DNA of 64,000 nt, taken from assembly GCA_040390045.1 (NCBI GenBank), contig JAZJZC010000001.1, positions 36,345-100,344 of the forward strand. The letters run 5' to 3'. Shown here in pieces: positions 7,011 through 62,322 of this stretch. Within the stretch, counting starts at the first letter, position 1. Each line of letters begins with the position of its first letter. This DNA comes from Patescibacteria group bacterium (GTDB lineage: Bacteria > Patescibacteriota > Minisyncoccia > Phycocordibacterales > SIBU01). The translations under genes were made by a program, and so were the position numbers. The notes under the pieces are model-generated. The model was not told the DNA's origin. It made no database searches and saw only the letters and a list, made by a program, of their open reading frames with translations.

Positions 7011-7457
7011 ATGAAAACACTCAAATCACTGCTGGTCTGGTCCGCCCTCATCACCACTCTTATGACCTTGCTCGGCCTGTTCTTCGTCGCTAGCAATGGT
7101 GACTACGAGCTCCGGGACGCGAACAACGCGCTTCTGGATTGGAAGGAGGTCGTCACCGGCGAGAGCCACTTTCGTGGCTACGAGATGCCGATCGGCATCG
7201 GCTCCGTCGCGGTAGACCAACTCGCTGGCGAGGCCTATCAGGCCAGTGCCTATGGTGCCAGTCGCGCCGGCAATGCCCTCGCGATCTACATCACCCCGGA
7301 CTTTGTCCCATTCACTTGTGGACTCGCGTGGCTTTGGACGGCATTTCTGGTCGTGGCCTACGTCGTCTGCTTATTCTGGCGAACATTTGGGATTGATTGC
7401 CTTGCCAAAATCAAATACTGGCAAATTGAAAGGATTCGCAAGGCCTCCGAACAGTAA
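7011..7457 (+). CDS. Hypothetical membrane protein, GC-rich (~60%) relative to the flanks
   Basis: Signal/TM-like N-terminus, second hydrophobic segment near the C-terminus. Strong compositional contrast with neighbours. Its own terminator follows. Confidence 0.6.
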   Translation: MKTLKSLLVWSALITTLMTLLGLFFVASNGDYELRDANNALLDWKEVVTGESHFRGYEMPIGIGSVAVDQLAGEAYQASAYGASRAGNALAIYITPDFVPFTCGLAWLWTAFLVVAYVVCLFWRTFGIDCLAKIKYWQIERIRKASEQ

Positions 7458-28128: not shown

Positions 28129-28145
28129 TAACGAACTCCCACCCA

Positions 28146-28562
28146 TCAATCAGGTGACACTGAAGCGCCACAGATTTCACGAACCCTTGGGTCCGGTTCA
28201 CGCATGTGTTCCCAAAATGTACGAGGCGAAACCCACCCAAGAATGTAGTGGTACATAACCCGTTGCCGAATCGTTCCCACCCCGCCCCTTTTCCAGCCAA
28301 AATTTCCATGTACCTTCTGCGCAAAAAGATACGACCGGCGCGAGACAAACGCCTCACCATCTGCAATGTGAGGGCGAGAATTTCGTTCGTCTTTCGTTAC
28401 CAGCGCGACCCATCCGTGTCCTATGTAAAACACTTTTGCGTGTCCCCCCGACCAGCCGTTTGTCCCATGCTCCTCGCGCGCGGGCCGACTCGAACCAAAC
28501 TTCTTGGCAAGAACTGCGTGACCATTCGTCGATTGATGATCTGACATAACCAAAATTTCCAA
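28146..28562 (-). CDS. Hypothetical protein in a GC-rich (~55%) segment. Call uncertain
   Basis: Longest ORF among several overlapping frames in a GC-rich patch. Trp/His/Gly/Arg-rich, no recognised family. It is delimited by terminators on both sides. Confidence 0.3.
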   Translation of the reverse strand: MEILVMSDHQSTNGHAVLAKKFGSSRPAREEHGTNGWSGGHAKVFYIGHGWVALVTKDERNSRPHIADGEAFVSRRSYLFAQKVHGNFGWKRGGVGTIRQRVMYHYILGWVSPRTFWEHMREPDPRVREICGASVSPD

Positions 28563-28607
28563 AGTTCAAACTTCGTTTTTCGTCCTCAACACGGAAGTGG
28601 TAAGGTA

Positions 28608-28642
28608 AAAACGAAAGAGTCCCCTTTCGAGGACTCTTTTTT
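28608..28642. terminator. Bidirectional intrinsic terminator downstream of tgt
   Basis: agagtcc-cctttcg-aggactct followed by tttttt. Confidence 0.7.
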
Positions 28643-28815
28643 GTGATTTATGATTTGAGATTTTGGCTTTTCCTACATCACACAAAAGAGACCTCGAAGT
28701 TTTTCGAGATTTGACTTGGTGACGTCGACGCAGAATTGCCTATGTGACATATTTTTATTGTACACGAGCCTGTACGCTCGTCAAATGACCTGGGGATAAC
28801 CAAAGTGGTCTGAAA

Positions 28816-32145: not shown

Positions 32146-32409
32146 ATGATTGTAACCATTCTGCGTTGGACTCTACCCGTCGTACTTTTTGTAGTTTTCG
32201 TCTCCTTCATTTACACGTGGAAATTTGTTCTCCAGTACAACATCGCTGTTGGAATCGAAAGAAGGTGCCCGAAAAAAAGAGCCGCGGCGAAAGAGTATAT
32301 TGAAAAACGAGGAGGCTTCAATCCCCATGCCTACGCCGGGGCAATCATCTGGATGATAGCGAGCGCAGTGATTGTTTTCTCGGGCACCATGTGGATGATC
32401 ATTTCTTGA
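32146..32409 (+). CDS. Small two-TM membrane protein (87 aa) with a strong SD (aggagg)
   Basis: ggaaaggaggtttATG. Two hydrophobic helices. Its own terminator follows. Confidence 0.6.
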   Translation: MIVTILRWTLPVVLFVVFVSFIYTWKFVLQYNIAVGIERRCPKKRAAAKEYIEKRGGFNPHAYAGAIIWMIASAVIVFSGTMWMIIS

Positions 32410-32417
32410 GTGCTCTC

Positions 32418-32450
32418 GCCCCGATTCGCTTCGCGAATCGGGGCTTTTTT
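32418..32450 (+). terminator. Intrinsic terminator
   Basis: gccccgattcgc-ttc-gcgaatcggggc followed by tttttt. Confidence 0.8.
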
Positions 32451-32514
32451 AAAAGTTTTGCTGATTTGGCACCGCGCTGATATACTTTTTCCTAGAGACA
32501 GCGAAAGGAAATGT

Positions 32515-32790
32515 ATGAACTTGAACTTTGAATTCTGGTGGCAGTATGTCGCCTACCATGGCTACGTCGCAGCTTCTATCATCATGGGTCTGGCAGCATG
32601 GTACGGATTTATAATAATGCCACCAAAGCCCTACAACATAGCCGCTGGAGTCGGGACGCTGACACGGTTGTTTCTCCACTGGTCATATGACCTCGACAGG
32701 CGCTACTACAATCCGAAACTCAGTAAGGTTGCCAAGTGTGTTGCACTACTGATGTTTGTCATTTTAGTCTCTCCGCTCTGGCTTTTCTAA
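32515..32790 (+). CDS. Small two-TM membrane protein (91 aa), possible paralog of the preceding one
   Basis: RBS aaaggaa ahead of ATG at 32515. Shares a YNIA(A/V)G motif with the upstream protein. Confidence 0.5.
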   Translation: MNLNFEFWWQYVAYHGYVAASIIMGLAAWYGFIIMPPKPYNIAAGVGTLTRLFLHWSYDLDRRYYNPKLSKVAKCVALLMFVILVSPLWLF

Positions 32791-32821
32791 GCCGACGGAA
32801 AACATCGCAACCAGTACAGCT

Positions 32822-32857
32822 CCGATCCGTCATGGTGGATCGGGGCTTTTTTCTTTT
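32822..32857 (+). terminator. Intrinsic terminator
   Basis: ccgatcc-gtcatggtg-gatcgg ggc followed by ttttttctttt. Confidence 0.7.
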
Positions 32858-35933: not shown

Positions 35934-36004
35934 AATTTAGTTGGTGATATATGTTCGATTTGCCCGCCTAGTATAACAAAGTTTTAGAGGAAAACTATAC
36001 AAGG

Positions 36005-36032
36005 TTGACACCTTTCAAAAATTTACTATAGT
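36005..36032 (+). promoter_or_regulatory. Sigma-70 consensus-like promoter TTGACA-N16-TATAGT
   Basis: -35 at 36005-36010, -10 at 36027-36032. Confidence 0.65.
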
Positions 36033-36060
36033 GAGCCCAGAAAAAGCGGAATGCAAACTC

Positions 36061-36390
36061 ATGAATCCTAAAAAACGTTGGTATATTCTCGAAGGTGTCA
36101 GTGATGGCGAAATATTTGCACACCAGCTCATGGACGGTCTACCTGTCGGTATGGGAATCAGCGAAAAAACCTCACTCGCTAAGGAGATAGGGGCCGAACA
36201 AACAGTCATAGTCTTAGTGGTTTGTACCCCCATTCAGGAAAAGCTCCTCGATGCCCTTCTTGCCATTGATCGTTTCGGGGGTGATGGAAGTGAATCCTTC
36301 CTTTTCGAATTGGTGGGTCTTATCCGGGCTGCAAGGAAGCGCCCCAGAGTTTACCCTGTTCGTGCTGACCTGTCTACCATCAGCGAATGA
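36061..36390 (+). CDS. Hypothetical protein (109 aa)
   Basis: ATG 29 nt after the -10 box. Its own terminator follows. No recognised family. Confidence 0.5.
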   Translation: MNPKKRWYILEGVSDGEIFAHQLMDGLPVGMGISEKTSLAKEIGAEQTVIVLVVCTPIQEKLLDALLAIDRFGGDGSESFLFELVGLIRAARKRPRVYPVRADLSTISE

Positions 36391-36395
36391 TCTGT

Positions 36396-36432
36396 AATCA
36401 CCCAAAATCTCGGGTGATTTTTTTATTCTTTT
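36396..36432 (+). terminator. Intrinsic terminator
   Basis: aatcaccc-aaaatctc-gggtgatt followed by tttttattctttttt. Confidence 0.8.
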
Positions 36433-36460
36433 TTGACTCTCAAATCCAGTAGCGTATAAT
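36433..36460 (+). promoter_or_regulatory. Sigma-70 consensus promoter TTGACT-N16-TATAAT driving the X2 leader and the glutaredoxin-like gene
   Basis: -35 at 36433-36438, -10 at 36455-36460. Confidence 0.7.
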
Positions 36461-36518
36461 GAATCAACTAGGTCGCAAAAAAGTTTTTCAAAAATAAATT
36501 TAACCACAGAGCTAAAAA

Positions 36519-36670
36519 CTTCCAGATTTGAGTGCAGTTTGAGGCGACCGCGAGTACGTGACTAAGCTGTGCGTCGCGTCTCAATTGACGTTACGCGACG
36601 CGATTCCGTCGGAATCGACTGCGCAGGAGCGCACGGAGCGGGCAACGAAGAAATGCACCAAATATGGAAG
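36519..36670 (+). ncRNA. Candidate structured RNA element, copy X2, in the 5' leader of the glutaredoxin-like gene
   Basis: 152 nt enclosed by closing stem cttccagatttg / caaatatggaag. Internal hairpins cgtcgcgt-ctcaattgacgtt-acgcgacg, cgattc-cgtcg-gaatcg and tgcgc-agga-gcgca covary with X1/X3. Confidence 0.5.
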
Positions 36671-36989: not shown

Positions 36990-38240
36990 TTACAGCTTCA
37001 AGCTTCTCTCCCCCATTGCTTCCGTAATCCTTCCAATGCCGATCGCAAACGCCGCATCACGAAGCGAAATTTTCTTAGCACAAGCCATCTGCCAAACCGC
37101 CTTAAAACTATTGACCATAATTGGCTCGAGTCGCGCCCGCACTTCTTCTGCCGTCCAATAATAATTTTGAACATTTTGCACCCATTCAAAGTAACTCACC
37201 GTCACGCCGCCAGCGTTTGCCAACACATCTGGAATTAAAAATACCTTTTTTCGACTCAAAATTTCGTCAGCCTCTGGAGTAGTTGGGCCATTCGCTAGTT
37301 CTACAATAATTTTTGCCTTAATCTCTCCTGCGTTTCCAACATGGATCACCCCGTCAAGCGCCGCCGGAATAAGCACATCACAATCCGAGACAAGCAATTC
37401 TTCATTTGAAATATTTTTTGCTCCCTTAATTGCAACATCTTTAAACGAACCTTTATCGTGCTTTACTCTCTCAAGTTGTTCAACATCAAATCCCACAGAA
37501 TTATATATTCCGCCGTGACTATCAGAAATCCCAACAATGACATACCCAGCTTTTTGTAAAATTTTCGCCATCGTTCCACCCGCATTACCAAAACCTTGAA
37601 CGATCACCCGCAAACCTCTCTCCTTCATGCCAAGGGCTTTCACCAACTCGCGTAACACAAATGCTCCGCCGTCTGCCGTTGCGGTATCCCTTCCCAAACT
37701 TCCACCGAGCGAAAGTGGTTTGCCTGTGATTAATCCCGGTTCACTTTTACCGGTATTTTTTTCAAACTCATCTAAAATAAATGCCATAATCTGACCGTTG
37801 GTATAGACGTCTGGCGCAGGAATATCCTTGTTAGCGCCAATGTATGGAGTCATCACTTTTGCCCAAGCTCGAGAAATTTTTTCGATTTCATTTGGGCTCA
37901 ATTTTTTAGGGTCACAGACCACACCTCCCTTCCCGCCTCCGAGCGGAATCCCAACCACTGCGCATTTGACCGCCATAGCCGCCGCCAAAGCTTTCACTTC
38001 ATCGAGGTCAGCATCAGGATGAAATCGAATTCCCCCTTTGTACGGCCCGCGAGCATTATTAAACTGCACACGATAGGCTTGAAAGGTTTGTTTCTTGCCA
38101 CTGTCCATCGTTATTGAAATCTTTTTATCCAGAATTCGATTTGGGGTGGTTAATTTTTTAATAAATTCTTTCGGCAACCCGAGCAACTTTACCGATTTCT
38201 CCACATTGACCGAATAATTCTTAAACGGAGTTTTTTTCAT
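36990..38240 (-). CDS. gdhA: Glutamate dehydrogenase (Glu/Leu/Phe/Val dehydrogenase family)
   Basis: GGGKGG catalytic glycine-rich motif (PLGGGKGGVVCDP), NAD(P)-binding GFGNAGG. Confidence 0.9.
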   Translation of the reverse strand: MKKTPFKNYSVNVEKSVKLLGLPKEFIKKLTTPNRILDKKISITMDSGKKQTFQAYRVQFNNARGPYKGGIRFHPDADLDEVKALAAAMAVKCAVVGIPLGGGKGGVVCDPKKLSPNEIEKISRAWAKVMTPYIGANKDIPAPDVYTNGQIMAFILDEFEKNTGKSEPGLITGKPLSLGGSLGRDTATADGGAFVLRELVKALGMKERGLRVIVQGFGNAGGTMAKILQKAGYVIVGISDSHGGIYNSVGFDVEQLERVKHDKGSFKDVAIKGAKNISNEELLVSDCDVLIPAALDGVIHVGNAGEIKAKIIVELANGPTTPEADEILSRKKVFLIPDVLANAGGVTVSYFEWVQNVQNYYWTAEEVRARLEPIMVNSFKAVWQMACAKKISLRDAAFAIGIGRITEAMGERSLKL

Positions 38241-38340: not shown

Positions 38341-38372
38341 ATAAAAAACCGCCCTGGATAAATCCAAGACGG
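38341..38372 (-). terminator. Intrinsic terminator (minus) downstream of the DAHP synthase gene
   Basis: ccgtcttgg-atttat-ccagggcgg (two G-U pairs) followed by tttttt. Confidence 0.55.
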
Positions 38373-38385
38373 CTATGCAAAAAGA

Positions 38386-39465
38386 TCAACGATTACCTAA
38401 TGCGTCGAAAAGCTCCTTAATCAAATCGTGAGACCTTCCCAGACCGTCACAACTATCGGTGATGGAAACCCCGCTCTCAATAGTTGGCTTCTGTCCCGAA
38501 CGAATGACAATTTTCTGGCTACCGTCGAGCAGATTACTCTCGTATAGCCCGCCAAAAATTGGCACACCCGAAGCTACTTGATTTGCTACTGACCGGCAAA
38601 CTTCAATCTGCGCCTTGTGATCTTTACCTGAATTGGCGTGACTAAAATCAACCACCAAACGAGGGGACAAACCTTGCGCAGTTAGGGCGTGCTGAGCTTC
38701 AGCCACCTGCTCCGGACAGTAGTTCGGACCATGATGTGTGCCTCGAAGGATCAGGAATCCGTCGGGATTACCTGTGGTTTCAAACTTGGCCATAATGCCG
38801 GAATCAGACACGGCAGGCAATGAGTGCGAGGTCTTTGCAAACGCCAAGGAATCAAGCGCCGGCTGCAACGGTCCGCTAATGGGGTTTTTGAATCCCACGG
38901 GGCACGAAAGCGCACTGGCCACCTGTCGCAATTGCTGATTGGTCACCTCTCGGGCGCCAATCCAGTACAGCGAGTAGAGATCATCAAACCTCTGCTGACC
39001 CGGGATATCGTTGTATTCCGTGGCGATCGGAATTCCCAACTCAGACAAGTCCAGTGCAAGCCGACGCCCCTCTCGCCAACCTTTCTCAATATCATAACTA
39101 CCGTCAAGATCAGGATCGGACCAAAACCCAGTCCAATCTGGCTTGGTGCGCGGCTTACTGAAACAGAGCCGCATCATGAAGAAAATCCTCGAACCAAATT
39201 TCTTCTGCAGCACGGAGAGCCATCGGCCATACTCCAGGCAATCCTCAGTGGAGTGTACAGAACACGGCCCGAGAACAAGCATGAAGCGCGGATCAACTCC
39301 ACGCAGGATTCTTTGCCCGATTTTCCTGGCGGTGCCGATTGTTTTCCAAGCCTTTTCAGTCATCGGCAAGTCAGCTTTGAGCTGCGCCGGCGAAGGTAGG
39401 GGGTGCTCACTGCGGATACGGATGTTGGTCATTCGAGCAACACGGTGACGTAATTGAGTACTCAT
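38386..39465 (-). CDS. 3-deoxy-7-phosphoheptulonate (DAHP) synthase, class I alpha (AroG/F/H type), GC-rich relative to the background
   Basis: Aligns along its whole length with E. coli AroG (LVLGPCSVHS, KPRT, SCPVGFKN, IDFSHANS). GC ~53-55% against ~38% in the flanks. Confidence 0.85.
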   Translation of the reverse strand: MSTQLRHRVARMTNIRIRSEHPLPSPAQLKADLPMTEKAWKTIGTARKIGQRILRGVDPRFMLVLGPCSVHSTEDCLEYGRWLSVLQKKFGSRIFFMMRLCFSKPRTKPDWTGFWSDPDLDGSYDIEKGWREGRRLALDLSELGIPIATEYNDIPGQQRFDDLYSLYWIGAREVTNQQLRQVASALSCPVGFKNPISGPLQPALDSLAFAKTSHSLPAVSDSGIMAKFETTGNPDGFLILRGTHHGPNYCPEQVAEAQHALTAQGLSPRLVVDFSHANSGKDHKAQIEVCRSVANQVASGVPIFGGLYESNLLDGSQKIVIRSGQKPTIESGVSITDSCDGLGRSHDLIKELFDALGNR

Positions 39466-39755
39466 AATTTGTTAGTTATTCAGTTGTCAAAAATCTGCTT
39501 TTGTTTTCGGAAACTTCAGATTTGAGCGAATTGCGCCAAACATGAAGTTACCTAAAACAAAACGAGTCTGGGTTACATTCCAGAGCTCGTTTCTAATATC
39601 GTTGGAGAGAAGCTTTAACGATAGCAGGAATCAGCTCTGGACGCAGTGCCCCAGAAGCCAAAGAAAAAGAAGTTGCTATAGTTATTGCCCGATTTCATAT
39701 TCGCCATATTACACAACGGTTTACAAAATGTCAACAAAGGTTCTGACTCCCCTCC

Positions 39756-39862
39756 GATACGAAATGCGGGCCAACGAAAATACGAAATTATACGAAAACC
39801 GTAGCGACGGTAAAAAGTTTTCGTATTTTTTCGTATTTTCGTACCCTTTCGTATGTTCGTAT
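39756..39862. repeat. ATACGAA/TTCGTAT repeat element (copy B), an ~90-bp imperfect palindrome centred on ccgtagcgacgg, in the DAHP synthase promoter region
   Basis: gatacgaaatgcgg...cgaaaatacgaaattatacgaaaacc | ttttcgtattttttcgtattttcgtaccctttcgtatgttcgtattt. Confidence 0.7.
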
Positions 39863-40684
39863 TTACCTCTCCTTGTAATAGACCTTATTCCCAAACCTCA
39901 AATCAACATATTCAACGTTTTTAAAAACTTTGCCATCGCTAAATTCACTACTTACCAAAAGTGTTTGAAAGTTTTTCAAAACTAAAGAAAAATCAGCGTC
40001 GCGGGCAAAAATAATTTTCTGACCTCCGGAAAAATCAGCCTCAAAATCTAAATCAGGGCGTTCTCGAAAAGCTGTCACCTTAAACCCTGCGCTTGAAAGT
40101 TGTTCAGCAAAATCTAACAGTTTTTTAAAATAATCAGGCGAAACATATTGCAATTTCATCGGTTCCGCTTTTTCTTCGGCAGAATAGAATGTAATAAATT
40201 CGAGTGACGTATCTTCCATTTGGTAAAACGGACTAAAAATTAAACCGGTGTCATCCAAAAAGTAACACTGTTCCGGTTTTCCCTGACACCACAAAGCTTT
40301 GGGGCTTCGCTCGATGACACTGACCGTAATGGCGTGAGAATTTTTATAGCTAACCCCAACATGAGCGACCTGAGAATACGAATCAAGAATAGTTGATTCT
40401 ATTTTTTTGGCCGGATAGAAAAAAATATTTGATTTCGGAATCGTGAAAAAATATCGTCCCTGTAAAAATCCTTCCGTCGTTGACGCAATGTCTGCAGTTG
40501 CGAGGGACGTGGCTCCGACCACTTCAACATCAGAAATGGTAATAAAATTAAGACCTGATAGATAATAGACTGAGCCCCACAAGCCACCGAAAAAAAAGAC
40601 CGCGAGAATTATTCTACCGATAATCACCTTGCGGCGTTTCGCTTTTAGACGCGCGGATTTTAGATTGTATGTTCTGCCATTCAT
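39863..40684 (-). CDS. Cell-division protein FtsQ/DivIB-like (N-terminal TM plus POTRA)
   Basis: Basic N-terminus, one TM, then ISDVEVVGATSLATADI...GRYFFTIPKSNIFFYPAKKIES resembling a POTRA domain. Confidence 0.5.
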   Translation of the reverse strand: MNGRTYNLKSARLKAKRRKVIIGRIILAVFFFGGLWGSVYYLSGLNFITISDVEVVGATSLATADIASTTEGFLQGRYFFTIPKSNIFFYPAKKIESTILDSYSQVAHVGVSYKNSHAITVSVIERSPKALWCQGKPEQCYFLDDTGLIFSPFYQMEDTSLEFITFYSAEEKAEPMKLQYVSPDYFKKLLDFAEQLSSAGFKVTAFRERPDLDFEADFSGGQKIIFARDADFSLVLKNFQTLLVSSEFSDGKVFKNVEYVDLRFGNKVYYKER

Positions 40685-42060: not shown

Positions 42061-42387
42061 TTAGACTGCTTCGGAACTTGCGTGAACGGACTGCTCATCA
42101 TGAACGATGATGACGCACTCATGATGAACCGTTGAAATAGGAAATTTCTCACCAAAAGCCCTACTTCCACGGAGCATCAACGAATTGGAAACCGTACTTA
42201 TATCTCCACCATTTTGGCGCAAGGCCTCTAAAAGTTTGCGCCGAAAAACTCTCTCCGCGGCTGCCAACATCCCCACTTCTACCATCACCCGAAGGTATTT
42301 TTCAAGCTCATCAAGTTGCTCAGTAGTAGTAGCCGGGCGTTGGACAAAGGTGAGTAAGCCGCATTGTTGGCGATTCATATGTATCAA
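42061..42387 (-). CDS. Hypothetical protein (108 aa), moderately GC-rich
   Basis: ORF only, GC ~48%. Confidence 0.35.
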   Translation of the reverse strand: MIHMNRQQCGLLTFVQRPATTTEQLDELEKYLRVMVEVGMLAAAERVFRRKLLEALRQNGGDISTVSNSLMLRGSRAFGEKFPISTVHHECVIIVHDEQSVHASSEAV

Positions 42388-43505: not shown

Positions 43506-45710
43506 ATGAAATTACTTATCGTCGAATCACCAGCAAAAGCGAAAACCATTTCAAAATATTTGGATGGGAAATATACCGTCAAAGCATCCGTCGGACATGT
43601 TCGCGACTTGCCAAAAAGTAATAAAAAAGCCATCGACATCGAAGGTGGTTTTATTCCGCATTACGAAATCTCCAAAGGTAAAGAAAAAGTAGTTGCTGAA
43701 CTCGAGGCCCTCGCCAAAAAAGCTGATGAAATTTTGCTCGCAACCGACCCCGATCGAGAAGGTGAAGCTATTGCATGGCACATAGCCGAGCTCATAAAAG
43801 GCGAGCTCGGAAATTCGAAATCAAAAGCACGAAATACGAAACCCGAAATAAAACGCGTAACGTATCATGAAATTACTAAAGAGGCCATTGAGGAAGCACT
43901 GAAACACCCCCGAGAAATTGACCAAAATCTCCGGCGCGCCCAGGAGGCGCGCCGGGTGCTCGACCGCCTTGTCGGATACGACCTCTCCGGCATCATTTGG
44001 AAAAAAGTTCGGTACGGACTTTCTGCTGGCCGCGTGCAATCCCCCGCTCTGCGAATTCTCGTCGAACGCGAACGTGAAATCCGCGCTTTCATTCCAGAAA
44101 AATTCTGGGTAATTTCCGCTGATGTTGAAAGTAAAAGTGGCGGGAAATTCCTTTTGCTTTGCGTCGAAGAACCGCGTGATTTCAAACTGGTAGAAAAAAT
44201 TTTGGAAATCGGCAAACGTGACGATTGGATTGTGCAAGATATTTCTGAAACTGAAGCCAAGCGAAGTCCGAAAGCTCCATTCATTACTTCAACACTCCAA
44301 CAAGCAGCAAGTTCACGCCTCGGCTTTGCTCCTTCACGAACCATGGGCATCGCCCAAAAACTCTACGAAGCCGGACTCATCACCTACATGCGTACCGACA
44401 GTACCAATCTCAGTGTTACCGCTCTAACTCAAATGACTGGTGTAATTGAAAAAAAGTTTGGGCAAGGTTTCTCTGAATCGCGCACCTACACCAAGAAAAG
44501 TAAAAACGCTCAGGAAGCGCACGAAGCTATTCGACCCACGGATCTTTCAAAAGATTCTGAAGGAGCAACGGACGAAGCCAAGAAACTCTACCAGCTCATC
44601 TGGCAAAGAACAGTCGCCAGCCAAATGGTAGATGCCAAAATTTTGCGCAGTAAAATTACGGTGCAAATTGGTACGGGTGAAATCCCTAACTTTGCCATCA
44701 ACGGCACCCGTGTCATTTTCCCCGGCTGGCTCTTGGCTGATCCCGACGCGCGAGGTGATGATGTTGAACTTCCAAAAGTAACGCTCAACGAAAAATTGAA
44801 CCTGCTTGATTTGCGCACCGAGGAAAAAGCCACCGAACCACCCCCACGCTACAGTGAGGCTGGACTTATTAAGGAACTGGAAAAACGCGGCATCGGTCGT
44901 CCGTCAACCTATGCTTCGATTTTAAAAACCATCGAGGATCGCGGCTACGTTACCAAAGAAACCAAAGCACTCAAGCCGACAGATACCGGCGAAGTAGTCA
45001 GCGGTTTTCTTGAAGAAAATTTCGCCAATTACATTAGCGACACCTTCACCGCGGAAATGGAAGACAAGCTCGACGATATTGCAAACGGCGATCGAGAATA
45101 TTTAAAAACCTTAAGCGAATTTTACAAACCATTCCTCAAAGAAGTAAAATCCAAAGAAAAATTAGAAAAAGCCACCAACCTCGGCGACGGTCCGAAAGAA
45201 TTCCCCTGCCCTCTCTGTAAAAGTCCAATGATTATCAAACTCGGAAAGACCGGCAGATTTTTAAGTTGTTCCAAATTTCCAGATTGTCTTGGCGCACGCA
45301 CAATCGCGGGCATTGAGCTCGAAGGACCTAAAGAAACTGGAGAGATGTGTCCGGAATGTAAGACTGGTAAACTCATCGAGCGCGACGGAAAATTCGGCCG
45401 CTTCATCGCCTGCAACAATTATCCTAAATGTAAATTTATTAAAAAAGATGCGGAGCTCGAAAAGAAAAATTCAACCGGTGTGGTCTGCCCTGTCTGTAAA
45501 GACGGCATGATGACTGAACGTCGCGGACGCTTTGGAATTTTTTACAGTTGTTCCAATTATCCAAAATGTAAAAACGCCATTAAAGCCAAACCAACGGGGA
45601 ACCTCTGTCCGATGTGTGGAGCGCTTATGATGCTGGGCACGAAGACTATACCCGAACGTTGTAGTAATAAACTCTGTCCCAATCATAGACCGGATAAACT
45701 TGTAAAGTAG
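43506..45710 (+). CDS. topA: DNA topoisomerase I with C-terminal zinc-ribbon repeats
   Basis: TOPRIM (LLIVESPAKAKTI, ATDPDREGE), catalytic GLITYMRTDS tyrosine region, four C4 zinc ribbons (CPLCKSP...C..C etc.). Confidence 0.95.
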   Translation: MKLLIVESPAKAKTISKYLDGKYTVKASVGHVRDLPKSNKKAIDIEGGFIPHYEISKGKEKVVAELEALAKKADEILLATDPDREGEAIAWHIAELIKGELGNSKSKARNTKPEIKRVTYHEITKEAIEEALKHPREIDQNLRRAQEARRVLDRLVGYDLSGIIWKKVRYGLSAGRVQSPALRILVEREREIRAFIPEKFWVISADVESKSGGKFLLLCVEEPRDFKLVEKILEIGKRDDWIVQDISETEAKRSPKAPFITSTLQQAASSRLGFAPSRTMGIAQKLYEAGLITYMRTDSTNLSVTALTQMTGVIEKKFGQGFSESRTYTKKSKNAQEAHEAIRPTDLSKDSEGATDEAKKLYQLIWQRTVASQMVDAKILRSKITVQIGTGEIPNFAINGTRVIFPGWLLADPDARGDDVELPKVTLNEKLNLLDLRTEEKATEPPPRYSEAGLIKELEKRGIGRPSTYASILKTIEDRGYVTKETKALKPTDTGEVVSGFLEENFANYISDTFTAEMEDKLDDIANGDREYLKTLSEFYKPFLKEVKSKEKLEKATNLGDGPKEFPCPLCKSPMIIKLGKTGRFLSCSKFPDCLGARTIAGIELEGPKETGEMCPECKTGKLIERDGKFGRFIACNNYPKCKFIKKDAELEKKNSTGVVCPVCKDGMMTERRGRFGIFYSCSNYPKCKNAIKAKPTGNLCPMCGALMMLGTKTIPERCSNKLCPNHRPDKLVK

Positions 45711-45828
45711 ATTCAGGATTTAAGATTTAAGATTCAAGAATAAGAAACTAATGCCACCCTATCTGTAATCCTAGCAACAGCAGGAATAACAGTCGGTTAT
45801 AAATTTTCGTGCAACTTAAAAATCGAGG

Positions 45829-45857
45829 CAAAGAAAAAACTCGCACCGTAATGCGAG
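45829..45857 (-). terminator. Intrinsic terminator (minus) for the 45868-46209 gene
   Basis: ctcgca-ccgtaa-tgcgag. On the minus strand it is followed by ttttttctt. Confidence 0.65.
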
Positions 45858-45867
45858 CTTTGAAACA

Positions 45868-46209
45868 TTAATCGAGCCTCGGAACCCAGACACGCTCTCG
45901 CACCACCTCCCGTTCAGTCCAAACGATTTCTCCAAAGGCCCTCTCGAGATTAAGCGCGCTCTCCGGTACTATAAAATCGCAAGTGCTCTTCGCGCGCCCA
46001 TTTTCAACAATGGCACTAAACAGCAACCCTTCGGTGGAAAGAATTTTTCCTGATTCAAATCTGGTCGTTACTGTCACACGGCCATTTCGCGTACTTATTT
46101 CAGCAGCGTTGGCACTGTCCATCCACATCCTGCTCGCAGTTTCGAGCAATGAACGGCGAGTAGAATCATCGAGTGCATCGCCCGCGACCCTGAATACACA
46201 TTCTGACAT
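45868..46209 (-). CDS. Hypothetical protein (113 aa), GC-rich (~50%)
   Basis: ORF with a terminator. Compositional outlier. Confidence 0.4.
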   Translation of the reverse strand: MSECVFRVAGDALDDSTRRSLLETASRMWMDSANAAEISTRNGRVTVTTRFESGKILSTEGLLFSAIVENGRAKSTCDFIVPESALNLERAFGEIVWTEREVVRERVWVPRLD

Positions 46210-46335
46210 AGAATTTAAAGTTTGGTTTAACGATCAACGAAACTCAAAACAAAGTACCATGTAAAAAGTCGTTGAGCAAGGAACAACGTAACAAAAGAAA
46301 AAGCGCCCCGAAAAATCGGAACGCTTGCTTAAAAT

Positions 46336-46737
46336 CTACTCTCCCGGCCCAGTCCACGAGCAACACGAATGTCCTCCGCGTGGCTCCTCGTTGAGCTCGG
46401 CCCGTCTCCACCGTATGGCCTTCATGTTGGGCAAGTTCTGCTCCAACTCAAAGGTCGCGGGGTCACTTGGCCAACACGGAACGCCTGTATCGACACCCTC
46501 AACCACCCATTTTTTTCCGGAGCGAGTTGCCCAATCCTTGACCTGGGTTTTCAGAGCGTGAACCAATTCGAAAAGATTTTGGTTCGTGAACGTCGCCACA
46601 AACAACACAGAGTCTGGCGATGCATTAATTTTTTCAGGCAGAGGCCCCTCCCAAAGAAATGCTCTTAAGGATTGATCGGGACCTAGGCGGTGCACACTGA
46701 CGCTAATAATGTACCTCATAAGTAGTAGGTTTCTCAA
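46336..46737 (-). CDS. Hypothetical protein (133 aa), GC-rich
   Basis: ORF only. Compositional outlier adjacent to the previous one. Confidence 0.4.
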   Translation of the reverse strand: MRNLLLMRYIISVSVHRLGPDQSLRAFLWEGPLPEKINASPDSVLFVATFTNQNLFELVHALKTQVKDWATRSGKKWVVEGVDTGVPCWPSDPATFELEQNLPNMKAIRWRRAELNEEPRGGHSCCSWTGPGE

Positions 46738-46786
46738 AGTTCAAAATTGTTGTTTCCCTCCTCCCACCACTCGGTGTTTGGTAAAA

Positions 46787-46820
46787 CAAAAAGTAGCCCT
46801 CACGAGCTACTTTTTGTTAT
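46787..46820. other. Palindromic terminator-like hairpin in a gene-free 340-bp region
   Basis: caaaaagtagc-cctcacga-gctactttttg. No obvious upstream gene on either strand. Confidence 0.4.
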
Positions 46821-47076
46821 CGATTCTGAGAAGTGTAGTTAGAAGTCAATCGCAAAAAGAAGCCCTCGAAGGAAGGTCTTAGTCTTAGTGCTTGTCATTG
46901 ACATCGAAACTATCATAAATTGAGTGTACCAAGAGTATTAAAAAAAGCAATTGAGGTGTGGATATCTCAAAAATTTGACTAAACTTTCAAAAGTGGTATT
47001 TTAGTTTGAGCTAGAACAAGACCAACTAAACTTTTGCGACATCATTCGTTCGAGTTGCGTAGGTCGGAAGGAAAAA

Positions 47077-47508
47077 ATGAATCAGCCATTAATCGTCCGC
47101 GAAGAAAGACGCCGGGTGCTCCTTGCAGAGCAACATGTCAGTAACCATGGCGAAATGTTGAACAGGCTTTCAAGTATGTTTACACTCCAATGTGCCCCAA
47201 CCGCAATTGCAGTGCTCGTCCATCTACAGCAAGAACAGCCTGACCTTCTTATCGTGAGCGCCGCAATTCCAAATGCGCACGCCTTTCCAGAAGGAGAAAC
47301 GGCAGACGGATCGAAGACGGTGATTCTGTTGATAAAAGAAATTCGGAGAAAACACCCAGGGTTACCTGTTCTCGTTTACAACGTCGAAGCTGGTCCGCCT
47401 CGCGGTTTTAAACAAGATGCAAAAACCTTCTTTTTCCCTCTCTACCCGACCACAACGAGAGGGCTCTGCGAACGAGCGGCGGAGCTGGCAAGAAACGGCA
47501 AAAATTGA
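47077..47508 (+). CDS. Receiver (REC)-like domain protein lacking the phospho-acceptor Asp (pseudo-receiver), GC-rich
   Basis: Alternating beta/alpha pattern, ...PDLLIVSAAIPNAH... where canonical REC has DLxLxDxxMP. KEIRRKHPGLPVLVY resembles the REC alpha4-beta5 region. Confidence 0.45.
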   Translation: MNQPLIVREERRRVLLAEQHVSNHGEMLNRLSSMFTLQCAPTAIAVLVHLQQEQPDLLIVSAAIPNAHAFPEGETADGSKTVILLIKEIRRKHPGLPVLVYNVEAGPPRGFKQDAKTFFFPLYPTTTRGLCERAAELARNGKN

Positions 47509-47515
47509 AGGTGTT

Positions 47516-47556
47516 GTGGCATTTCGATTCTCATCGAAATGCCACTTTTCTTTTTC
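47516..47556 (+). terminator. Intrinsic terminator
   Basis: gtggcatttcgat-tctc-atcgaaatgccac followed by ttttctttttc. Confidence 0.8.
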
Positions 47557-47596
47557 AAAAGTTGCTAGACCCTACGTATTGGAGTAGCATAAAATC

Positions 47597-49111
47597 ATGG
47601 CAACTATTAAGGAAATAACCAGCTTAATGCAAAACCCCGCCCCTGCTGATATTGCGCTCATTACTAAAGCGTATGTTTTTGCTGAAACGGTTCATGCAAG
47701 CCAAAGACGCATCACCGGCGAACCCTATTTTGACCATCTTTTTGAAACCGCGAAAACACTTGCTGAGCTCGGCATGGGAGCCATTACGATTTCTGCGGGA
47801 CTGCTCCATGATTCTATTGAAGACGTTAATGTCACACCGGAAACAATTGAAGAAAAATTTGGAAAAGAAATTCGATTTTTAGTTGAAGGCGTCACCAAAC
47901 TTGGAAAACTCCATTACAGCGGTAGCGAACGTTACATTGAAAGTTTGAGAAAACTTTGCGTCGCCATGTCGAAAGATGTTCGTGTGCTCATCATCAAACT
48001 TGCCGATCGACTGCATAACATGAAATCGATTGAGGTACTTCCAAAGGAAAAACGTGATCGCATCTCACTCGAAACTCTCGAAATCTACGCTCCACTTGCC
48101 TACCGCATCGGCATCAGAAAAATCAACCGAGAATTGGAAGATTTGGCATTTCCGCATGTTAAACCGGAAGAATATGAAAAGGTAAAAAAATTATTGAAAA
48201 CCAAAAGCCACGAAAAAGTGCGCCACTTGGAAAAATTTCATAAATCGATAATGAGTCAACTTGCCTTGGCGGGAATGCGAAACGTCAAAACCAGTTACCG
48301 ACTGAAGGGTCTCTACAGTCTCTACCGAAAATTACTTCGCAAAGAATGGGACATAGAAAAAATTTACGACATTTCAGCACTAAGAATTATCGTGCCGACC
48401 GTGAGCGATTGTTATGCCGTTCTCGGTCTCATCCATAGCATTTGGAGACCGCTACCCGGGCGTATCAAGGATTACATCGCTCTGCCAAAATCAAACAATT
48501 ATCGAGGCATTCACACCACCATCTTCACCGGCGACGGTGGCATTCTTGAAGTGCAGATCCGAACTGAAGAAATGCACCGCAAAACTGAATACGGTATGCA
48601 CTTTGAATACAAAGAAATTATCAACAACCCAAAACCAAACTTCGGCAGTATTTCCTGGGTTAAGAAATTTTTCCCTTCGTTTATTTTAACCAACAACGAA
48701 ATCAAAAATGAACAGCAAAATCCGGAAAAAATCGTTCCGTCATGGATTCGAGAATTGGGAGAATACAATAAAGAAGTAGCGGGCACAGACAATCTCGTAG
48801 AAGATTTAAAAACTGACTTTTTCGGCGATCGCGTATTCACCTTCACACCAAAAGGTGACGTGATCGACTTGCCACTTGATTCGAGCACTATCGATTTTGC
48901 CTACGCTGTCCATTCCGACATCGGTGATCACATTTCGGGAGCCAAGGTCAATGGAAAATTGGTCTCGATAGAAACCATATTGAAAAATGGCGATATTGTG
49001 GAAGTTGTTACAAAACAAAGTTCTCGCCCAAGTCTCAAGTGGCTTGAGGTGGCGAAAACTGCGCTAGCAAAAAAGAAAATAAAGGACTATCTTGAGTCGG
49101 AGAAGAAGTAA
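47597..49111 (+). CDS. rel: Short bifunctional RelA/SpoT-homolog (HD hydrolase, (p)ppGpp synthetase, TGS; no ACT domain)
   Basis: HD motif (HASQRRITGEPYFDHLF...LLHDSIED). Synthetase (RIIVPTVSDCYAVLGLIHSIWRPLPGRIKDYIALPKSNNYRGIHTTI). TGS (FTFTPKGDVIDLP...DFAYAVHSDIG). Confidence 0.9.
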   Translation: MATIKEITSLMQNPAPADIALITKAYVFAETVHASQRRITGEPYFDHLFETAKTLAELGMGAITISAGLLHDSIEDVNVTPETIEEKFGKEIRFLVEGVTKLGKLHYSGSERYIESLRKLCVAMSKDVRVLIIKLADRLHNMKSIEVLPKEKRDRISLETLEIYAPLAYRIGIRKINRELEDLAFPHVKPEEYEKVKKLLKTKSHEKVRHLEKFHKSIMSQLALAGMRNVKTSYRLKGLYSLYRKLLRKEWDIEKIYDISALRIIVPTVSDCYAVLGLIHSIWRPLPGRIKDYIALPKSNNYRGIHTTIFTGDGGILEVQIRTEEMHRKTEYGMHFEYKEIINNPKPNFGSISWVKKFFPSFILTNNEIKNEQQNPEKIVPSWIRELGEYNKEVAGTDNLVEDLKTDFFGDRVFTFTPKGDVIDLPLDSSTIDFAYAVHSDIGDHISGAKVNGKLVSIETILKNGDIVEVVTKQSSRPSLKWLEVAKTALAKKKIKDYLESEKK

Positions 49112-52454: not shown

Positions 52455-53348
52455 TTAAAGGCCCACACGCTTAAACTTCGGGAAAGTCCCCTCCGGCCAC
52501 CCAAAGGTGACGTAGTAGTTCCCTTGTGGAAAACTAAAAACCTCTTGTGCCGGGTCTGGCGGTCCGAGAGGAATCGAGCCTGACCACTTTTTTCCCACTC
52601 CCGCCACCCGCCACTGGAAACTTGTGGCAACGGCCACGATTTCACCTTGCCGATTGAGCATTGTTGCCCGAAGCACAAGTGTTCGTTCCTGCGACAGTGC
52701 GAGTGTGAGAAGCGGCGAATTTTCTTCGCCTTGCCAGACCGACGCCCCGAACCCAGCGATATCGCCAGTTGGAATACCTTCGTCCGAACTTACAACAACG
52801 CCGCGAATGTGAGAGGGGAAGTTTTGCTTTACGAGCATCACCTGCCCTCGCCGTTCAGGGGGATTAATTGGAAAACCATTTCCCCCTCCTCCCCCACCGC
52901 CATCGAAATTTGGCACGAGGGATCGGAAGCTAGAGAGCCGGAGCTCTCCCTGTTGCATCGGCATTTGCCAACCCGACCACGGATTGAACTCGGGACGGTA
53001 GGTATGATTGCCGTCAAAGACTGCGCGCCCGAAGCAGTCCCGAAGAGCGGTGTCGATAGTGACGCCGTTGTCCGCAGGTTTGATAATCAGGAAGTTTAAA
53101 ATTTGGATGTTAAGGTGATTTAAAACCTCAACACCACCCTGATTACCGCTGACGTGCGCGAATGTCCCACCACCCCGGAAGGGTTTGACCGCCGGCCCGT
53201 AGGCTTGGATGCTTCCGGAGACGACAGTGTCCAGAGCGGCGGCCGCGGCCTCCGCATACAGCATCTGCCTAGTGGGCAGACCAACGATTTGGGCCGTGGC
53301 GGTGGCGGTGAAGGCGAGCAAGCTCGCAACGAAACAGAGTATTTTCAT
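52455..53348 (-). CDS. Secreted hypothetical protein (signal peptide, Gly-rich linker), moderately GC-rich
   Basis: MKILCFVASLLAFTATATAQ signal. FDGGGGGGGNGFP linker. Confidence 0.55.
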   Translation of the reverse strand: MKILCFVASLLAFTATATAQIVGLPTRQMLYAEAAAAALDTVVSGSIQAYGPAVKPFRGGGTFAHVSGNQGGVEVLNHLNIQILNFLIIKPADNGVTIDTALRDCFGRAVFDGNHTYRPEFNPWSGWQMPMQQGELRLSSFRSLVPNFDGGGGGGGNGFPINPPERRGQVMLVKQNFPSHIRGVVVSSDEGIPTGDIAGFGASVWQGEENSPLLTLALSQERTLVLRATMLNRQGEIVAVATSFQWRVAGVGKKWSGSIPLGPPDPAQEVFSFPQGNYYVTFGWPEGTFPKFKRVGL

Positions 53349-61146: not shown

Positions 61147-62322
61147 ATGAACACTGCAAATCTGTCTGAGCTCGAAACCGCACTGCAACCGAAGCCTGTT
61201 ACTGAAACGCTTCGGGTAAAGACCAACCAGGAACTCCGCGCCCTAAAGGCCAGCGGAGTTCGTCACCCGGGACTCGCTGACGAATGCGTCACCGACACCG
61301 TCGCCGACCTCTTCGAGGCCGCCGAGGCAGATCACGCCGCTGAGCCGGAAGAAATCCGTAGCTGGACCACGAGCCGTACTCAGATTGAGTACCGGCATCC
61401 GCTGTTCGGCAAACTCCTCATCGGCGTCAAGAATTGCTCATTGGGCGAACCACAACACGAAGGGCCCGACTCTTGGGCTCGCGTCTACAGTCCTACTCCC
61501 CGGCCCAATTGGTTGGAGATCGAGATGTCGGTCACAACCATTCATCGCGATATTAAGGTGATTGAATTCGCCGCCGATCCCGATTCTCACTCGGACGATC
61601 AATTCGCGAATGAGGTGATATGCAAGATTGCGCCGTTCCCCGTGAAGGTTCAGTGGCAAAAGAACCGCGAGAACGGAGACTGGGTGCCCTTCACCCGCGT
61701 GAAGCATCGCGACAACCTCGACCTCATCATACTGAATCCCGAAAGCGGGCAGTTCATCCAACTCGAGATCTCCATCACCACGCGCAACGGCTTTTGCTGG
61801 TTACTGGTGGAGGAACAGTACTCCGGGCAGTGGGTGCGCACCACAAAAACCCGCGCCGAAACGCTCGGCGTAAAAAACATCGCCCATGGGCAATACCCCT
61901 TGCTGGTGATGCCACTGTACGCCGCGAATGCGTACCCGACTGCGGATTACGTGAGGACGTTTCCGGAGCTGGCTGAGCAGATGTCGCAGTTCGTGATTCG
62001 TTGGGGCGCGCTGGTCCCCTTCGGCAAATGCGTCAAGGCCACGTGGGCCCCCGAAACGCGCGAGCTCACCGAGGAGATGGTCGCCAAAAGTTGGAAGAAG
62101 GCAACGCCGCTCTTTTTCAACGGCGTCATCGGCCACGGCCCAGCACTTTGTGAGGATGGAAAAATCTGTTTTTTGCACTTTTCCAAAATCATGGGTGCCG
62201 ACGGCAGTCCGGTCGGGTGCCGGGGTCAGTTCCCCATCATCCCGCCGATGCGCGAGGTCGCCGTCAAGTGGATGGACCAACCGGACGGCAAGCGGGCGGC
62301 CACAGCCATCCGCGTCATCTAG
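61147..62322 (+). CDS. Hypothetical protein (391 aa), strongly GC-rich (~57%) orphan with its own promoter-like region and terminator
   Basis: Long ORF with high GC3 in an AT-rich genome. No recognised domain. The terminator at 62355-62387 follows. Confidence 0.55.
   Translation: MNTANLSELETALQPKPVTETLRVKTNQELRALKASGVRHPGLADECVTDTVADLFEAAEADHAAEPEEIRSWTTSRTQIEYRHPLFGKLLIGVKNCSLGEPQHEGPDSWARVYSPTPRPNWLEIEMSVTTIHRDIKVIEFAADPDSHSDDQFANEVICKIAPFPVKVQWQKNRENGDWVPFTRVKHRDNLDLIILNPESGQFIQLEISITTRNGFCWLLVEEQYSGQWVRTTKTRAETLGVKNIAHGQYPLLVMPLYAANAYPTADYVRTFPELAEQMSQFVIRWGALVPFGKCVKATWAPETRELTEEMVAKSWKKATPLFFNGVIGHGPALCEDGKICFLHFSKIMGADGSPVGCRGQFPIIPPMREVAVKWMDQPDGKRAATAIRVI

Follow-up and report, generated by a model that had tools for sequence, protein, structure and literature searches.

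In this study we analysed a 64,000-nucleotide (nt) stretch of a Patescibacterial genome (assembly GCA_040390045.1, contig JAZJZC010000001.1, positions 36,345 to 100,344 of the forward strand; the whole stretch is called the window below, and its numbering is used throughout). [quoted passage not shown] The explanation that best accounts for the whole locus, and which we consider probable, is that the gene encodes an intact enzyme and is a repeatedly swapped cargo, derived from a donor richer in guanine and cytosine (GC) and placed behind a starvation-sensing attenuator. The components of this system (a DAHP synthase, attenuation, displacement in situ) are each known, and what is new is their combination and its occurrence in bacteria of the candidate phyla radiation (CPR). 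A TopA-anchored scan of species-representative genomes placed the window among Candidatus Taylorbacteria/Paceibacteria, its host being a Candidatus Taylorbacteria-like Patescibacterium. An initial annotation of the window had listed nine GC-rich genes, including that of the DAHP synthase, as individually acquired cassettes, and had considered the enzyme a possible stand-alone or moonlighting one.

The DAHP synthase and the leader region of its gene

The 359-aa product of the gene matched the family PF00793 (E=2e-52, 178 bits versus a cut-off of 25.5) and the aroFGH equivalog model TIGR00034 (305 bits versus a cut-off of 173), and failed to reach the cut-offs set in the equivalog models for AroG and AroH. 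Its matches in PDB were the AroF/AroG structures of Escherichia coli (6agm, 1kfl and 1qr7; E=1e-69 to 1e-73). The protein has the same length, architecture, and metal- and substrate-binding motifs as E. coli AroF, AroG and AroH, and shares approximately 39% identity with AroF over the aligned columns. The alignment with AroF/AroG, which bore out the initial description of the protein as full-length and alignable to AroG, revealed that all the catalytic motifs (GPCS, KPRT, GAR, GFKN, LRG, SHxNS, ESN and TDxC) have been kept; the metal ligands Cys, His, Glu and Asp, as well as the motifs binding phosphoenolpyruvate (PEP) and erythrose 4-phosphate (KPRT, GAR, GFKN, LRG), are intact. Judged by these motifs, the catalytic function of this type I-alpha DAHP synthase is most probably intact, and the enzyme is predicted to convert PEP and erythrose 4-phosphate into DAHP in the first step towards the aromatic amino acids. 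The Patescibacterial clade to which it belongs differs from the E. coli enzymes in a 3-residue insertion preceding GVSxTD and in the motifs 'WIGAR' and 'DxCDGxxRS'; the serine of the LSxPVGFKN motif is retained in this clade. Just past the stop codon of the gene lies a terminator-like hairpin (38347..38374, minus strand; a 12-pair stem followed by TTTTATTT), which separates the DAHP synthase gene from that of a glutamate dehydrogenase (GDH).

The upstream region contains an element (39554..39698, minus strand) which, by its anatomy, is a classical, putatively ribosome-mediated, leader-peptide attenuator, as indicated by sequence alignments, RNAalifold, covariation analysis and a covariance model (118.9 bits). 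On the minus strand, this element comprises (i) a leader open reading frame (ORF) of 27 codons (39698-39615; MKSGNNYSNFFFFGFWGTASRADSCYR) with the run F-F-F-F-G-F-W, whose Phe/Trp codons occupy positions 39671-39651, (ii) region 2 (39641-39619), (iii) region 3 (39601-39579), and (iv) the terminator arms (39592-39580 and 39571-39560) with a T-run (39562-39554). Upstream of it, a consensus scan detected a promoter-like site, TTGACA-17-TAATAT (39706..39734, minus strand; 10 of 12 matches), which would drive transcription of the leader ORF; according to the alignment, comparable -35 and -10 hexamers precede the leaders of two related loci, L002 and L015.

Leader ORFs of this type have 24-29 codons (17 in L074). 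Their variants include MKSVNYSKFFFYSFW… in L016, …FTFFFFGFW… in L015, …SFYFFSFW… in L126 and …AYFFSFFFN… in L094, and in 15 leaders 6-7 residues of a 9-residue window are aromatic (Phe, Tyr or Trp), compared with a background of 9.4%. The start codon ATG and the stop codon are conserved, and gaps in the alignment occur in multiples of three only. RNAalifold predicted an antiterminator helix, in which the 3' end of the leader ORF pairs with a downstream segment. In the trimmed alignment this helix consists of 19 pairs (97.4% paired), with compensatory double changes at 9 of them, and its covariation score was matched by none of 500 shuffles. The terminator consists of 11 pairs (96.8% paired), 3 of which display compensatory changes, and the T-run is present in all sequences. 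Since the right arm of the antiterminator is also the left arm of the terminator (alignment columns 129-139 are common to both), the two structures are mutually exclusive. One alignment column covaries with its partner in both helices, and single sequences fold into either form (in the window, each folded alone, -24.2 kcal/mol for the antiterminator and -14.8 kcal/mol for the terminator).

This architecture suggests how the element may operate. With an ample supply of charged Phe, Tyr and Trp tRNAs, a ribosome at the leader stop codon would cover region 2, regions 3 and 4 would form the terminator, and the DAHP synthase gene would not be transcribed. When these tRNAs are scarce, the ribosome would stall on the aromatic codons, region 2 would pair with region 3, the terminator would not form, and transcription would continue into the DAHP synthase gene.

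The covariance model, built from 12 copies of the attenuator, detected further copies upstream of DAHP synthase genes located elsewhere, i.e. in L022 and in L146 (an I-beta-like enzyme). In addition, two other classes of attenuator were identified. The second class, with leaders rich in Thr and Lys (and Ile or Met), resides in the topA-relA spacer. In L013 (14634-14775) and L014 (5221-5362) the leader MRLALFVVKKIIKTRILTRGLFLAIV is followed by a gene of a full-length, 449-aa aspartate kinase, while in L016 (approximately 12633-12835) the leader MSGMITKTSKKTKNSPRGLLFAIHF has no cargo. The window carries a candidate element of this class at 46783..46916 (minus strand), with the leader ORF MIVSMSMTSTKTKTFLRGLLFAIDF (46916-46839) and a terminator (46815-46788) followed by a T-run. 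Its score within the window is weak (28 bits, E=0.11), its orthologs in L013 and L014 reach 49 bits, and its DNA is conserved in L016, L013 and L014. The third class is represented by L013 1537-1622, where a Lys-rich leader (MNKKSKKIPTHRGLILVI) and a terminator are placed directly upstream of dapA (1673-2569; PF00701, E=9e-25). The paralogs have a common scaffold (…SR-G/A…C…, encoded by region 2), which occurs in Thr/Lys-rich and Lys-rich versions. In all three classes the composition of the leader matches the pathway of the cargo, and this strongly supports the identification of these elements as attenuators.

The element of the window resembles the E. coli systems pheL-pheA, pheM-pheST and trpL-trp, as well as aroR-aroF of Corynebacterium glutamicum, in having a leader with a codon run, a terminator, and an antiterminator that shares an arm with it. 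The last of these, which is the nearest functional precedent, is also similar in its cargo, a DAHP synthase gene, and in its Phe/Tyr-rich leader: according to a passage of PMC11802643 citing Neshat et al. 2014, the aroR leader (F-Y-F) lies upstream of aroF. The predicted regulation of the window gene by attenuation differs from that of the E. coli DAHP synthase genes, which are controlled by the repressors TyrR and TrpR (PMC11802643). The putative attenuator of the window differs from the known ones in being Patescibacterial, in mixing Phe, Tyr and Trp codons, and in being unlike the leader families of Rfam: a search of 39440-39870 with these families (Phe_leader, Trp_leader, His_leader and others) produced no match even at E<=10. 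We found no literature report of attenuators in CPR bacteria (Patescibacteria), nor any on a DAHP synthase or the shikimate pathway in CPR.

The Pfam and NCBIfam annotation of the window contained no other shikimate-pathway gene, in agreement with the initial annotation, which had drawn from this the idea of a stand-alone or moonlighting enzyme. This idea is contradicted by the conserved, aromatic-rich attenuator directly upstream. Because the attenuator would tie expression to the supply of Phe, Tyr and Trp, a moonlighting role is not supported, and the DAHP synthase gene appears to be a regulated biosynthetic gene, which the cell would treat as part of its response to a shortage of aromatic amino acids.

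The conserved slot and its variable content

The DAHP synthase gene and its attenuator occupy a fixed slot between two other genes. On one side (the right-hand boundary) lies the GDH gene (36990..38240, minus strand; 44.4% GC; NCBIfam GdhA, E=3.5e-147), whose product has only glutamate dehydrogenases as its best PDB matches (E=3e-125) and contains the conserved motifs KGGIRFHP and GGGKGG. We also considered whether this protein could be a Phe/Leu dehydrogenase acting as a partner of the DAHP synthase, and rejected this, as it is a true glutamate dehydrogenase whose gene has its own upstream region. The left-hand boundary is a backbone gene of FtsQ/DivIB type (39863..40684, minus strand; weak matches to Pfam FtsQ_DivIB_C and POTRA_1), found in 64-67 of 80 related loci. 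The gene order shared with the relatives is dprA, a small ORF, serS, the FtsQ-like gene, the DAHP synthase gene and the GDH gene.

The closest homologs of the window enzyme are only 46-49% identical to it, yet their genes are placed in the same neighbourhood, and they are 66-73% identical to one another. For comparison, SerS, DprA and GDH of the window are 68-74% identical to those of L002, the closest relative possessing the slot. In neighbour-joining trees the window enzyme branched at the base of the clade, outside the enzymes of L002, L003 and L009, although L009 is the outgroup in the backbone. Alternatively, the gene could be a vertical ortholog of the L002, L003 and L009 genes that had evolved much faster, and it does occupy the same slot, belong to the same clade, and carry the 3-residue insertion and motifs of this clade. 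The distances to outgroups argue against acceleration: the Kimura distances to seven outgroups were 1.03-1.15 for the window enzyme and 0.98-1.30 for those of L002, L003 and L009. The window enzyme lies no farther from the outgroups than its clade relatives do, and is closer to the proteobacterial ones. The lack of excess distance implies that the gene was replaced by a deep allele and not accelerated in place. The branching order also speaks against faster evolution, which does not explain the composition of the gene either (see below), and we regard it as highly improbable.

The content of the slot in related loci points in the same direction. The slot of L013 contains a type I-alpha enzyme that is 38% identical to that of the window and 61% identical to proteins from large-genome, non-CPR contexts, and the slot of L094 yet another I-alpha type, whose identity to any other protein does not exceed 38%. 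Further DAHP synthase types are present in L022 and L016, a divergent type I-beta enzyme occupies the slot in L126 and L137, and in L012 the slot lacks a DAHP synthase. Altogether, the DAHP synthases found in this slot among the relatives of the window genome represent five or more unrelated lineages, with type I-beta among them. The breakpoints are clearly visible in a comparison of L003 and L094, whose DNA is 72% identical in the FtsQ-like gene (hyp273), 84-94% in the attenuator and 78% in the GDH region, starting approximately 70 nt upstream of the gene. Across the intervening DAHP synthase stretch of about 1.3 kb there is no DNA similarity, and the encoded proteins are 34% identical. Between the window and L016, DNA identity (81%) is confined to the attenuator element. 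A DAHP synthase of type I-alpha or I-beta was detected in just 3 of 80 species-representative loci, and the attenuator DNA between the FtsQ-like gene and the slot has been kept even where the slot is empty.

The divergent I-beta-related enzymes merit separate description. They are encoded in L137 (2955-4097), L126 (1427-2638), L144 and L146 (10001-11200), and appear to be CPR-specific. The family has about 50 members among 5.8 billion proteins, the only named one being from Candidatus Falkowbacteria. Its proteins have an N-terminal 'MIVIMEAG…' domain, share 27-30% identity with canonical I-beta enzymes, and all fall below the curated NCBIfam cut-offs. Several of the compared loci, including L013, L016, L027-L030 and many others, display Paceibacteria-type synteny, yet their records bear the titles 'uncultured Gammaproteobacteria' or 'Candidatus Saccharibacteria', which seem to be mislabellings.

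The composition of the DAHP synthase gene was compared with that of 36 backbone genes of the window (median GC 42.3%, robust standard deviation 2.6). According to Pfam and NCBIfam, the backbone of the window includes greA, leuS, ychF, ddl, uvrA, uvrB, uvrC, tgt, serS, dprA, topA and relA, as well as parB, miaA, alr, clpB and genes of a Mur ligase and a class I tRNA ligase. In the synonymous test, the GC content observed at third codon positions (GC3) is related to that expected from the amino acids of the gene itself and the synonymous codon preferences of the backbone, and the backbone genes had z values from -4.1 to +3.0. The DAHP synthase gene has 52.4% GC and 54.7% GC3 (z=+5.1), and it is this value, together with a rise in GC of 9 points, for which faster evolution does not account.

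All these observations suggest that the DAHP synthase gene of the window is a foreign replacement copy in a fixed slot. Recombination between the attenuator and the upstream region of the GDH gene would have swapped the coding sequence behind the attenuator again and again. The window copy would be an allele that branches deeply and stems from a donor richer in GC, hence its conspicuous composition. In xenologous or non-orthologous displacement in situ, genes of an operon are replaced at the same position by foreign or analogous versions. The present case is similar in that position and regulatory context have been kept, the coding sequence has been swapped (I-alpha types A, B, C and others, as well as I-beta) and the breakpoints are clean. 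It is unusual in its density, with at least five lineages among close relatives within a reduced-genome, supposedly auxotrophic phylum, and in having the end of the attenuator as its left breakpoint.

One further feature of this region is the intergenic sequence next to the FtsQ-like gene (39746-39861), which contains an array of 'TTCGTAT'-type heptamer repeats. A related array is located in another intergenic region, at 2391-2509 (nhmmer E=5.6e-15 between the two), and another in L013 (223-302).

GC-rich accessory genes of the window

The GC content of the whole window is 43.3%, i.e. higher than the 38-40% claimed initially, and the compositional contrast of the GC-rich genes is correspondingly smaller. 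All nine of these genes proved to be ORFs at the positions given for them, but only four are clear outliers in GC3: 61147-62322 (z=+12.6), 7011-7457 (+6.6), 52455-53348 (+6.0) and the DAHP synthase gene (+5.1). Their GC contents are 58.5%, 55.9%, 56.3% and 52.4%, respectively; the initial values were about 57% for 61147-62322, about 60% for 7011-7457 and about 54% for the DAHP synthase gene. The ORF 46336-46737 (52.5% GC) is a borderline case (z=+3.2). In the ORFs 28146-28562, 45868-46209 and 47077-47508 (52.5%, 50.9% and 50.0% GC) the signal is weak (z from +1.3 to +1.7) and the GC stems from codon positions 1 and 2, while 42061-42387 (47.1% GC) is ordinary. A bias opposite to that of the GC-rich orphans was observed in 10409-14449 (minus strand). 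The composition of this gene is unusual (GC at the second codon position 0.52, GC3 z=-4.1), and its product of 1,346 aa has an N-terminus resembling a signal peptide.

As the source is a metagenome-assembled genome, GC-rich genes might in principle be assembly or binning artefacts, i.e. chimeric joins with DNA of GC-richer organisms. L001, a Logan assembly made independently from the same run, was 100% identical over 9,020 nt spanning both junctions of the DAHP synthase gene, the GC steps coincide with ORF boundaries, the AT-rich intergenic flanks (23-35% GC) carry putative regulatory signals, and the architecture of the slot recurs in many independent assemblies. We therefore attach practically no weight to this explanation.

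The strongest outlier (61147..62322, plus strand; GC3 72.7%) encodes a 391-aa orphan with two homologs among 5.8 billion proteins. The closer of these (54% identity) is encoded in L010, a contig of 54.5% GC, adjoining an IS481-type (rve) transposase gene (2-910 and 1125-2324), which hints at mobile DNA as a carrier of this family. The other, in L011, is syntenic (clpB, orphan, tRNA ligase), 40% identical, and its gene has 61.4% GC compared with 36-39% in the flanks. The family has conserved blocks and a C-terminus weakly resembling a cold-shock domain (hhalign to CspA, probability 61%); the AlphaFold model (mean pLDDT 50) was too poor for a fold search.

The second orphan (52455..53348, minus strand) is a protein of 297 aa, in which an N-terminus resembling a signal peptide is accompanied by a Gly-rich linker. 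Its gene has a predicted promoter (53459-53432) and terminator (52428-52405). Six weak matches were found among 1.84 billion representatives, and the syntenic homolog in L016 is 28% identical to it, with 55.9% GC versus approximately 39-41% in the flanks. Conserved DNA beside tRNA-Trp, considered as a part of the same cassette, proved to be rpmG: the minus-strand ORF 52122-52280 encodes a 52-aa zinc-ribbon protein, ribosomal protein L33, and its DNA is conserved across about 45 loci. It is adjoined by an 86-aa ORF (51632-51892, minus strand) of ArsR-like helix-turn-helix type.

The third orphan (7011..7457, plus strand; GC3 70%) is a 148-aa protein with hydrophobic N- and C-terminal segments, annotated as the hypothetical protein MES2087411, whose gene is flanked by a promoter-like site (6851-6880) and a terminator (7473-7507). 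It had no match in Pfam, PHROGs or PADLOC, and no homolog in the fetched loci, including L027, the sole locus with homologs of the neighbouring leuS and ychF. A phage or defence origin of the orphans was rejected, as no PHROGs or PADLOC matches were obtained. The claim that the GC-rich genes have their own terminators and/or promoters held for each of the four strong outliers, which have predicted sites of both kinds.

Two small ORFs on the minus strand (45868..46737, comprising 46336-46737 and 45868-46209; 51-52.5% GC, z=+3.2 and +1.6) lie downstream of the second attenuator-like element; they matched no family in Pfam (including E<=5), PHROGs or PADLOC, and the possibility that they are remnants of an aspartate kinase gene was dismissed for lack of similarity. 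The window-specific ORF 47077..47508 (plus strand; 143 aa, 50% GC, z=+1.3), inserted between this element and relA, had been described as a pseudo-receiver, for which no Response_reg match was found at E<=5; the distance from the element to relA is 650 nt in the window versus 60-90 nt in L016 and L013. The ORF 28146..28562 (minus strand; GC at the second codon position 0.48, z=+1.7) is a doubtful gene. It lies in a GC-rich spacer of about 950 bp between uvrB and tgt, which opens three overlapping ORFs on both strands and partly matches L017 in several frames, and the exact protein was absent from the searched protein collection. Finally, 42061..42387 (minus strand; z=+0.4) is a small backbone gene and not an acquired cassette, with homologs in L002 (an 86-aa ORF between dprA and serS; E=3.5e-6) and L003 (E=6.5e-4).

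Several observations concern the surroundings of the doubtful ORF. The adjacent uvrB ORF (25758-28142, minus strand) starts some 90 codons too far upstream, since the UvrB domains begin at approximately residue 100; the real start is near 27870. The segment 27900-28130, between uvrB and the doubtful ORF, is GC-rich and strongly structured (z=-7.2 on one strand and -7.5 on the other), has no Rfam match, and matches L017 (15296-15571) in several frames; its minus strand opens with a 14-bp hairpin and a U-run directly after the stop codon of 28146-28562. Upstream of this ORF, a long, near-perfect hairpin (28610-28725) gave weak microRNA-precursor and His_leader-like matches in Rfam. Elsewhere, the spacers 32211-32855 and 35934-36557 contain unannotated, mildly GC-elevated ORFs (32410-32790, 47.8% GC, z=+2.5; 36031-36390, 48.9% GC). 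The L013 counterpart of the latter spacer contains the Lys-leader-dapA unit, and both spacers may be additional variable slots.

At the gathering score, Rfam detected five tRNAs and nothing else in the whole window. The possibility that the GC-rich patches are structured RNA genes was also rejected, since permissive Rfam scans of 27600-28900, 45650-47650 and 39440-39870 produced no credible match.

The analysis was extended to 78 related loci, where 1,315 ORFs have a length of 100 aa or more, and in which an outlier was defined as an ORF at least 7 GC points above the locus median. There were 80 such ORFs; 79% of them had no homolog in other loci, compared with 30% of the rest (P=6e-17), and among widely conserved genes outliers accounted for just 0.8%. 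A Pfam family was assigned to approximately 10 of the 68 GC-outlier ORFs scanned. The genome represented by the window is composed of a conserved, moderately AT-rich backbone and a few variable slots with GC-richer accessory genes.

Of the features typical of genomic islands, atypical composition, patchy distribution and phylogenetic incongruence were all observed for the DAHP synthase gene, and atypical composition and rarity for 7011-7457, 52455-53348 and 61147-62322. The strong outliers resemble islands and ORFans in their atypical GC content and codons, patchy distribution and lack of homologs, and in one homolog being placed beside a transposase gene. They differ in being single-gene units, in being richer in GC than the host (foreign genes are more usually AT-richer), in the lack of integrase, att and mobility genes in the window, and in that the homologs in relatives keep both slot and high GC. 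No integrase or transposase gene was present among the genes of the window, where border repeats were not searched exhaustively.

How far, then, does the concept of individually and recently acquired cassettes, with a stand-alone or moonlighting DAHP synthase, apply? Four genes are indeed atypical in GC and synonymous codons, each comes with its own promoter- and terminator-like sites, no aro gene accompanies the DAHP synthase gene in the window or its examined Patescibacterial counterparts, and the presence of the enzyme in 3 of 80 loci is patchy. These facts have to be set against (i) the conservation of the slot and attenuator, refilled repeatedly by some DAHP synthase, which implies selection for this activity there, (ii) the aromatic-rich leader, which would link expression to the supply of aromatic aminoacyl-tRNAs, and (iii) the syntenic homologs of 52455-53348 and 61147-62322 in relatives, which show that these are not one-off insertions. 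In this form the concept is decidedly unlikely. The part of it that stood is that the strong outliers are accessory genes and the DAHP synthase gene at least is foreign, as indicated by the patchy distribution, the conflict with the backbone tree, the clean breakpoints and the atypical synonymous codons; the part that did not is the free-standing nature of the DAHP synthase gene, which fills a lineage-conserved slot. The other three strong outliers would be lineage-restricted, fast-diverging accessory genes residing in comparable slots.

An alternative that concerns all of these genes is that their GC-richness is maintained in place, by codon selection during starvation or by GC-biased gene conversion, in which case composition would be silent on origin. 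Consistent with this, DAHP synthase genes of both types have approximately 48-54% GC whatever the host (40-52%), an elevated GC content was likewise observed in the attenuator-linked cargo of L013 (52.3% in the aspartate kinase gene and 49.4% in dapA, versus 46.7% for the locus), and the GC-rich state of the orphan homologs in L016 and L011, at 28-40% identity, ill fits passive decay after a single old acquisition. On the other hand, the DAHP synthase gene of a Paceibacterota genome of 30% GC, which lacks the leader, has 34% GC, and high GC is thus not intrinsic to the gene; the GDH gene is also patchy, yet of ordinary GC; and the tree conflict, the relative-rate test and the clean breakpoints indicate replacement whatever the composition. 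We consider maintenance in place, as opposed to import, an unlikely origin of the GC-richness, though one carrying some weight.

Evaluation and implications

Several observations weigh against the interpretation of the locus as a repeatedly replaced, attenuator-controlled biosynthetic gene from a GC-richer donor. With regard to the enzyme, the window enzyme has GQQR instead of the allosteric-site sequence SPQY of AroF, and the proline is missing from the whole Patescibacterial clade. Mutation of this conserved feedback-site proline makes the E. coli enzyme resistant to inhibition, and its alteration bears on regulation and not on catalysis. The surroundings (about 10 kb) of the Patescibacterial DAHP synthase genes examined contained no aro genes, and CPR bacteria are usually considered auxotrophic for amino acids. 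With regard to the attenuator, the promoter is a consensus match, located such that transcription would begin at the leader ATG or directly ahead of it, a position from which the transcript may be leaderless.

Moreover, the aromatic attenuator also precedes cargo other than DAHP synthase genes: in L092 (attenuator 6056-6194) a 499-aa protein (6295-7794) encoded beside the GDH gene and matching neither Pfam nor NCBIfam, in L012 a 97-aa ORF (5839-6132), and in L074 a small protein downstream of the attenuator 2725-2846. The cargo proteins of the last two (85-97 aa) have a common motif, '(S/T)YP.G.RG'.

With regard to transfer, the trees were built by neighbour-joining only, no donor closer than 49% identity was found for the window copy, and DAHP synthase genes, with 48-54% GC in hosts of 40-52%, are outliers just in the AT-richer hosts. 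This near-constant GC could reflect a GC-maintaining force instead of recent transfer, and the orphans, too, stay GC-rich in relatives despite protein identities of 28-40%. A one-off transfer does not fully explain the persistence of GC; allele turnover, GC-biased conversion and codon selection are possible contributors.

Taken more broadly, the data allow a tentative generalization, which we put forward as a possibility that is less likely than not to hold in full. In Patescibacteria of Taylorbacteria type, a family of starvation-sensing attenuators (aromatic, Thr/Lys and Lys) may serve as fixed docking sites, which would repeatedly capture first committed enzymes of the aromatic and aspartate-family pathways, and some uncharacterised proteins, from a GC-richer pool including other phyla. 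Regulation would then be vertically inherited and the enzymes plug-and-play, and the persistent GC would result from allele turnover or from a slot-specific, GC-maintaining force.

CPR bacteria (Patescibacteria) have been described as minimal symbionts unable to make their own amino acids. The putative attenuators at the genes of DAHP synthase, aspartate kinase and dapA imply starvation-regulated biosynthetic entry points in at least this lineage, and raise the question of whether these genomes encode complete pathways or produce intermediates for, or together with, a partner organism. For annotation, the results indicate that the GC-rich 'hypothetical' genes of these genomes are mostly real, lineage-restricted accessory genes, and that small leader ORFs and attenuators escape notice; with the covariance model, amino-acid-responsive genes could be sought throughout the radiation. 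The locus itself seems to provide a clean natural example of a regulatory RNA that has been conserved while its enzyme cargo was replaced many times, even by a member of another subfamily.

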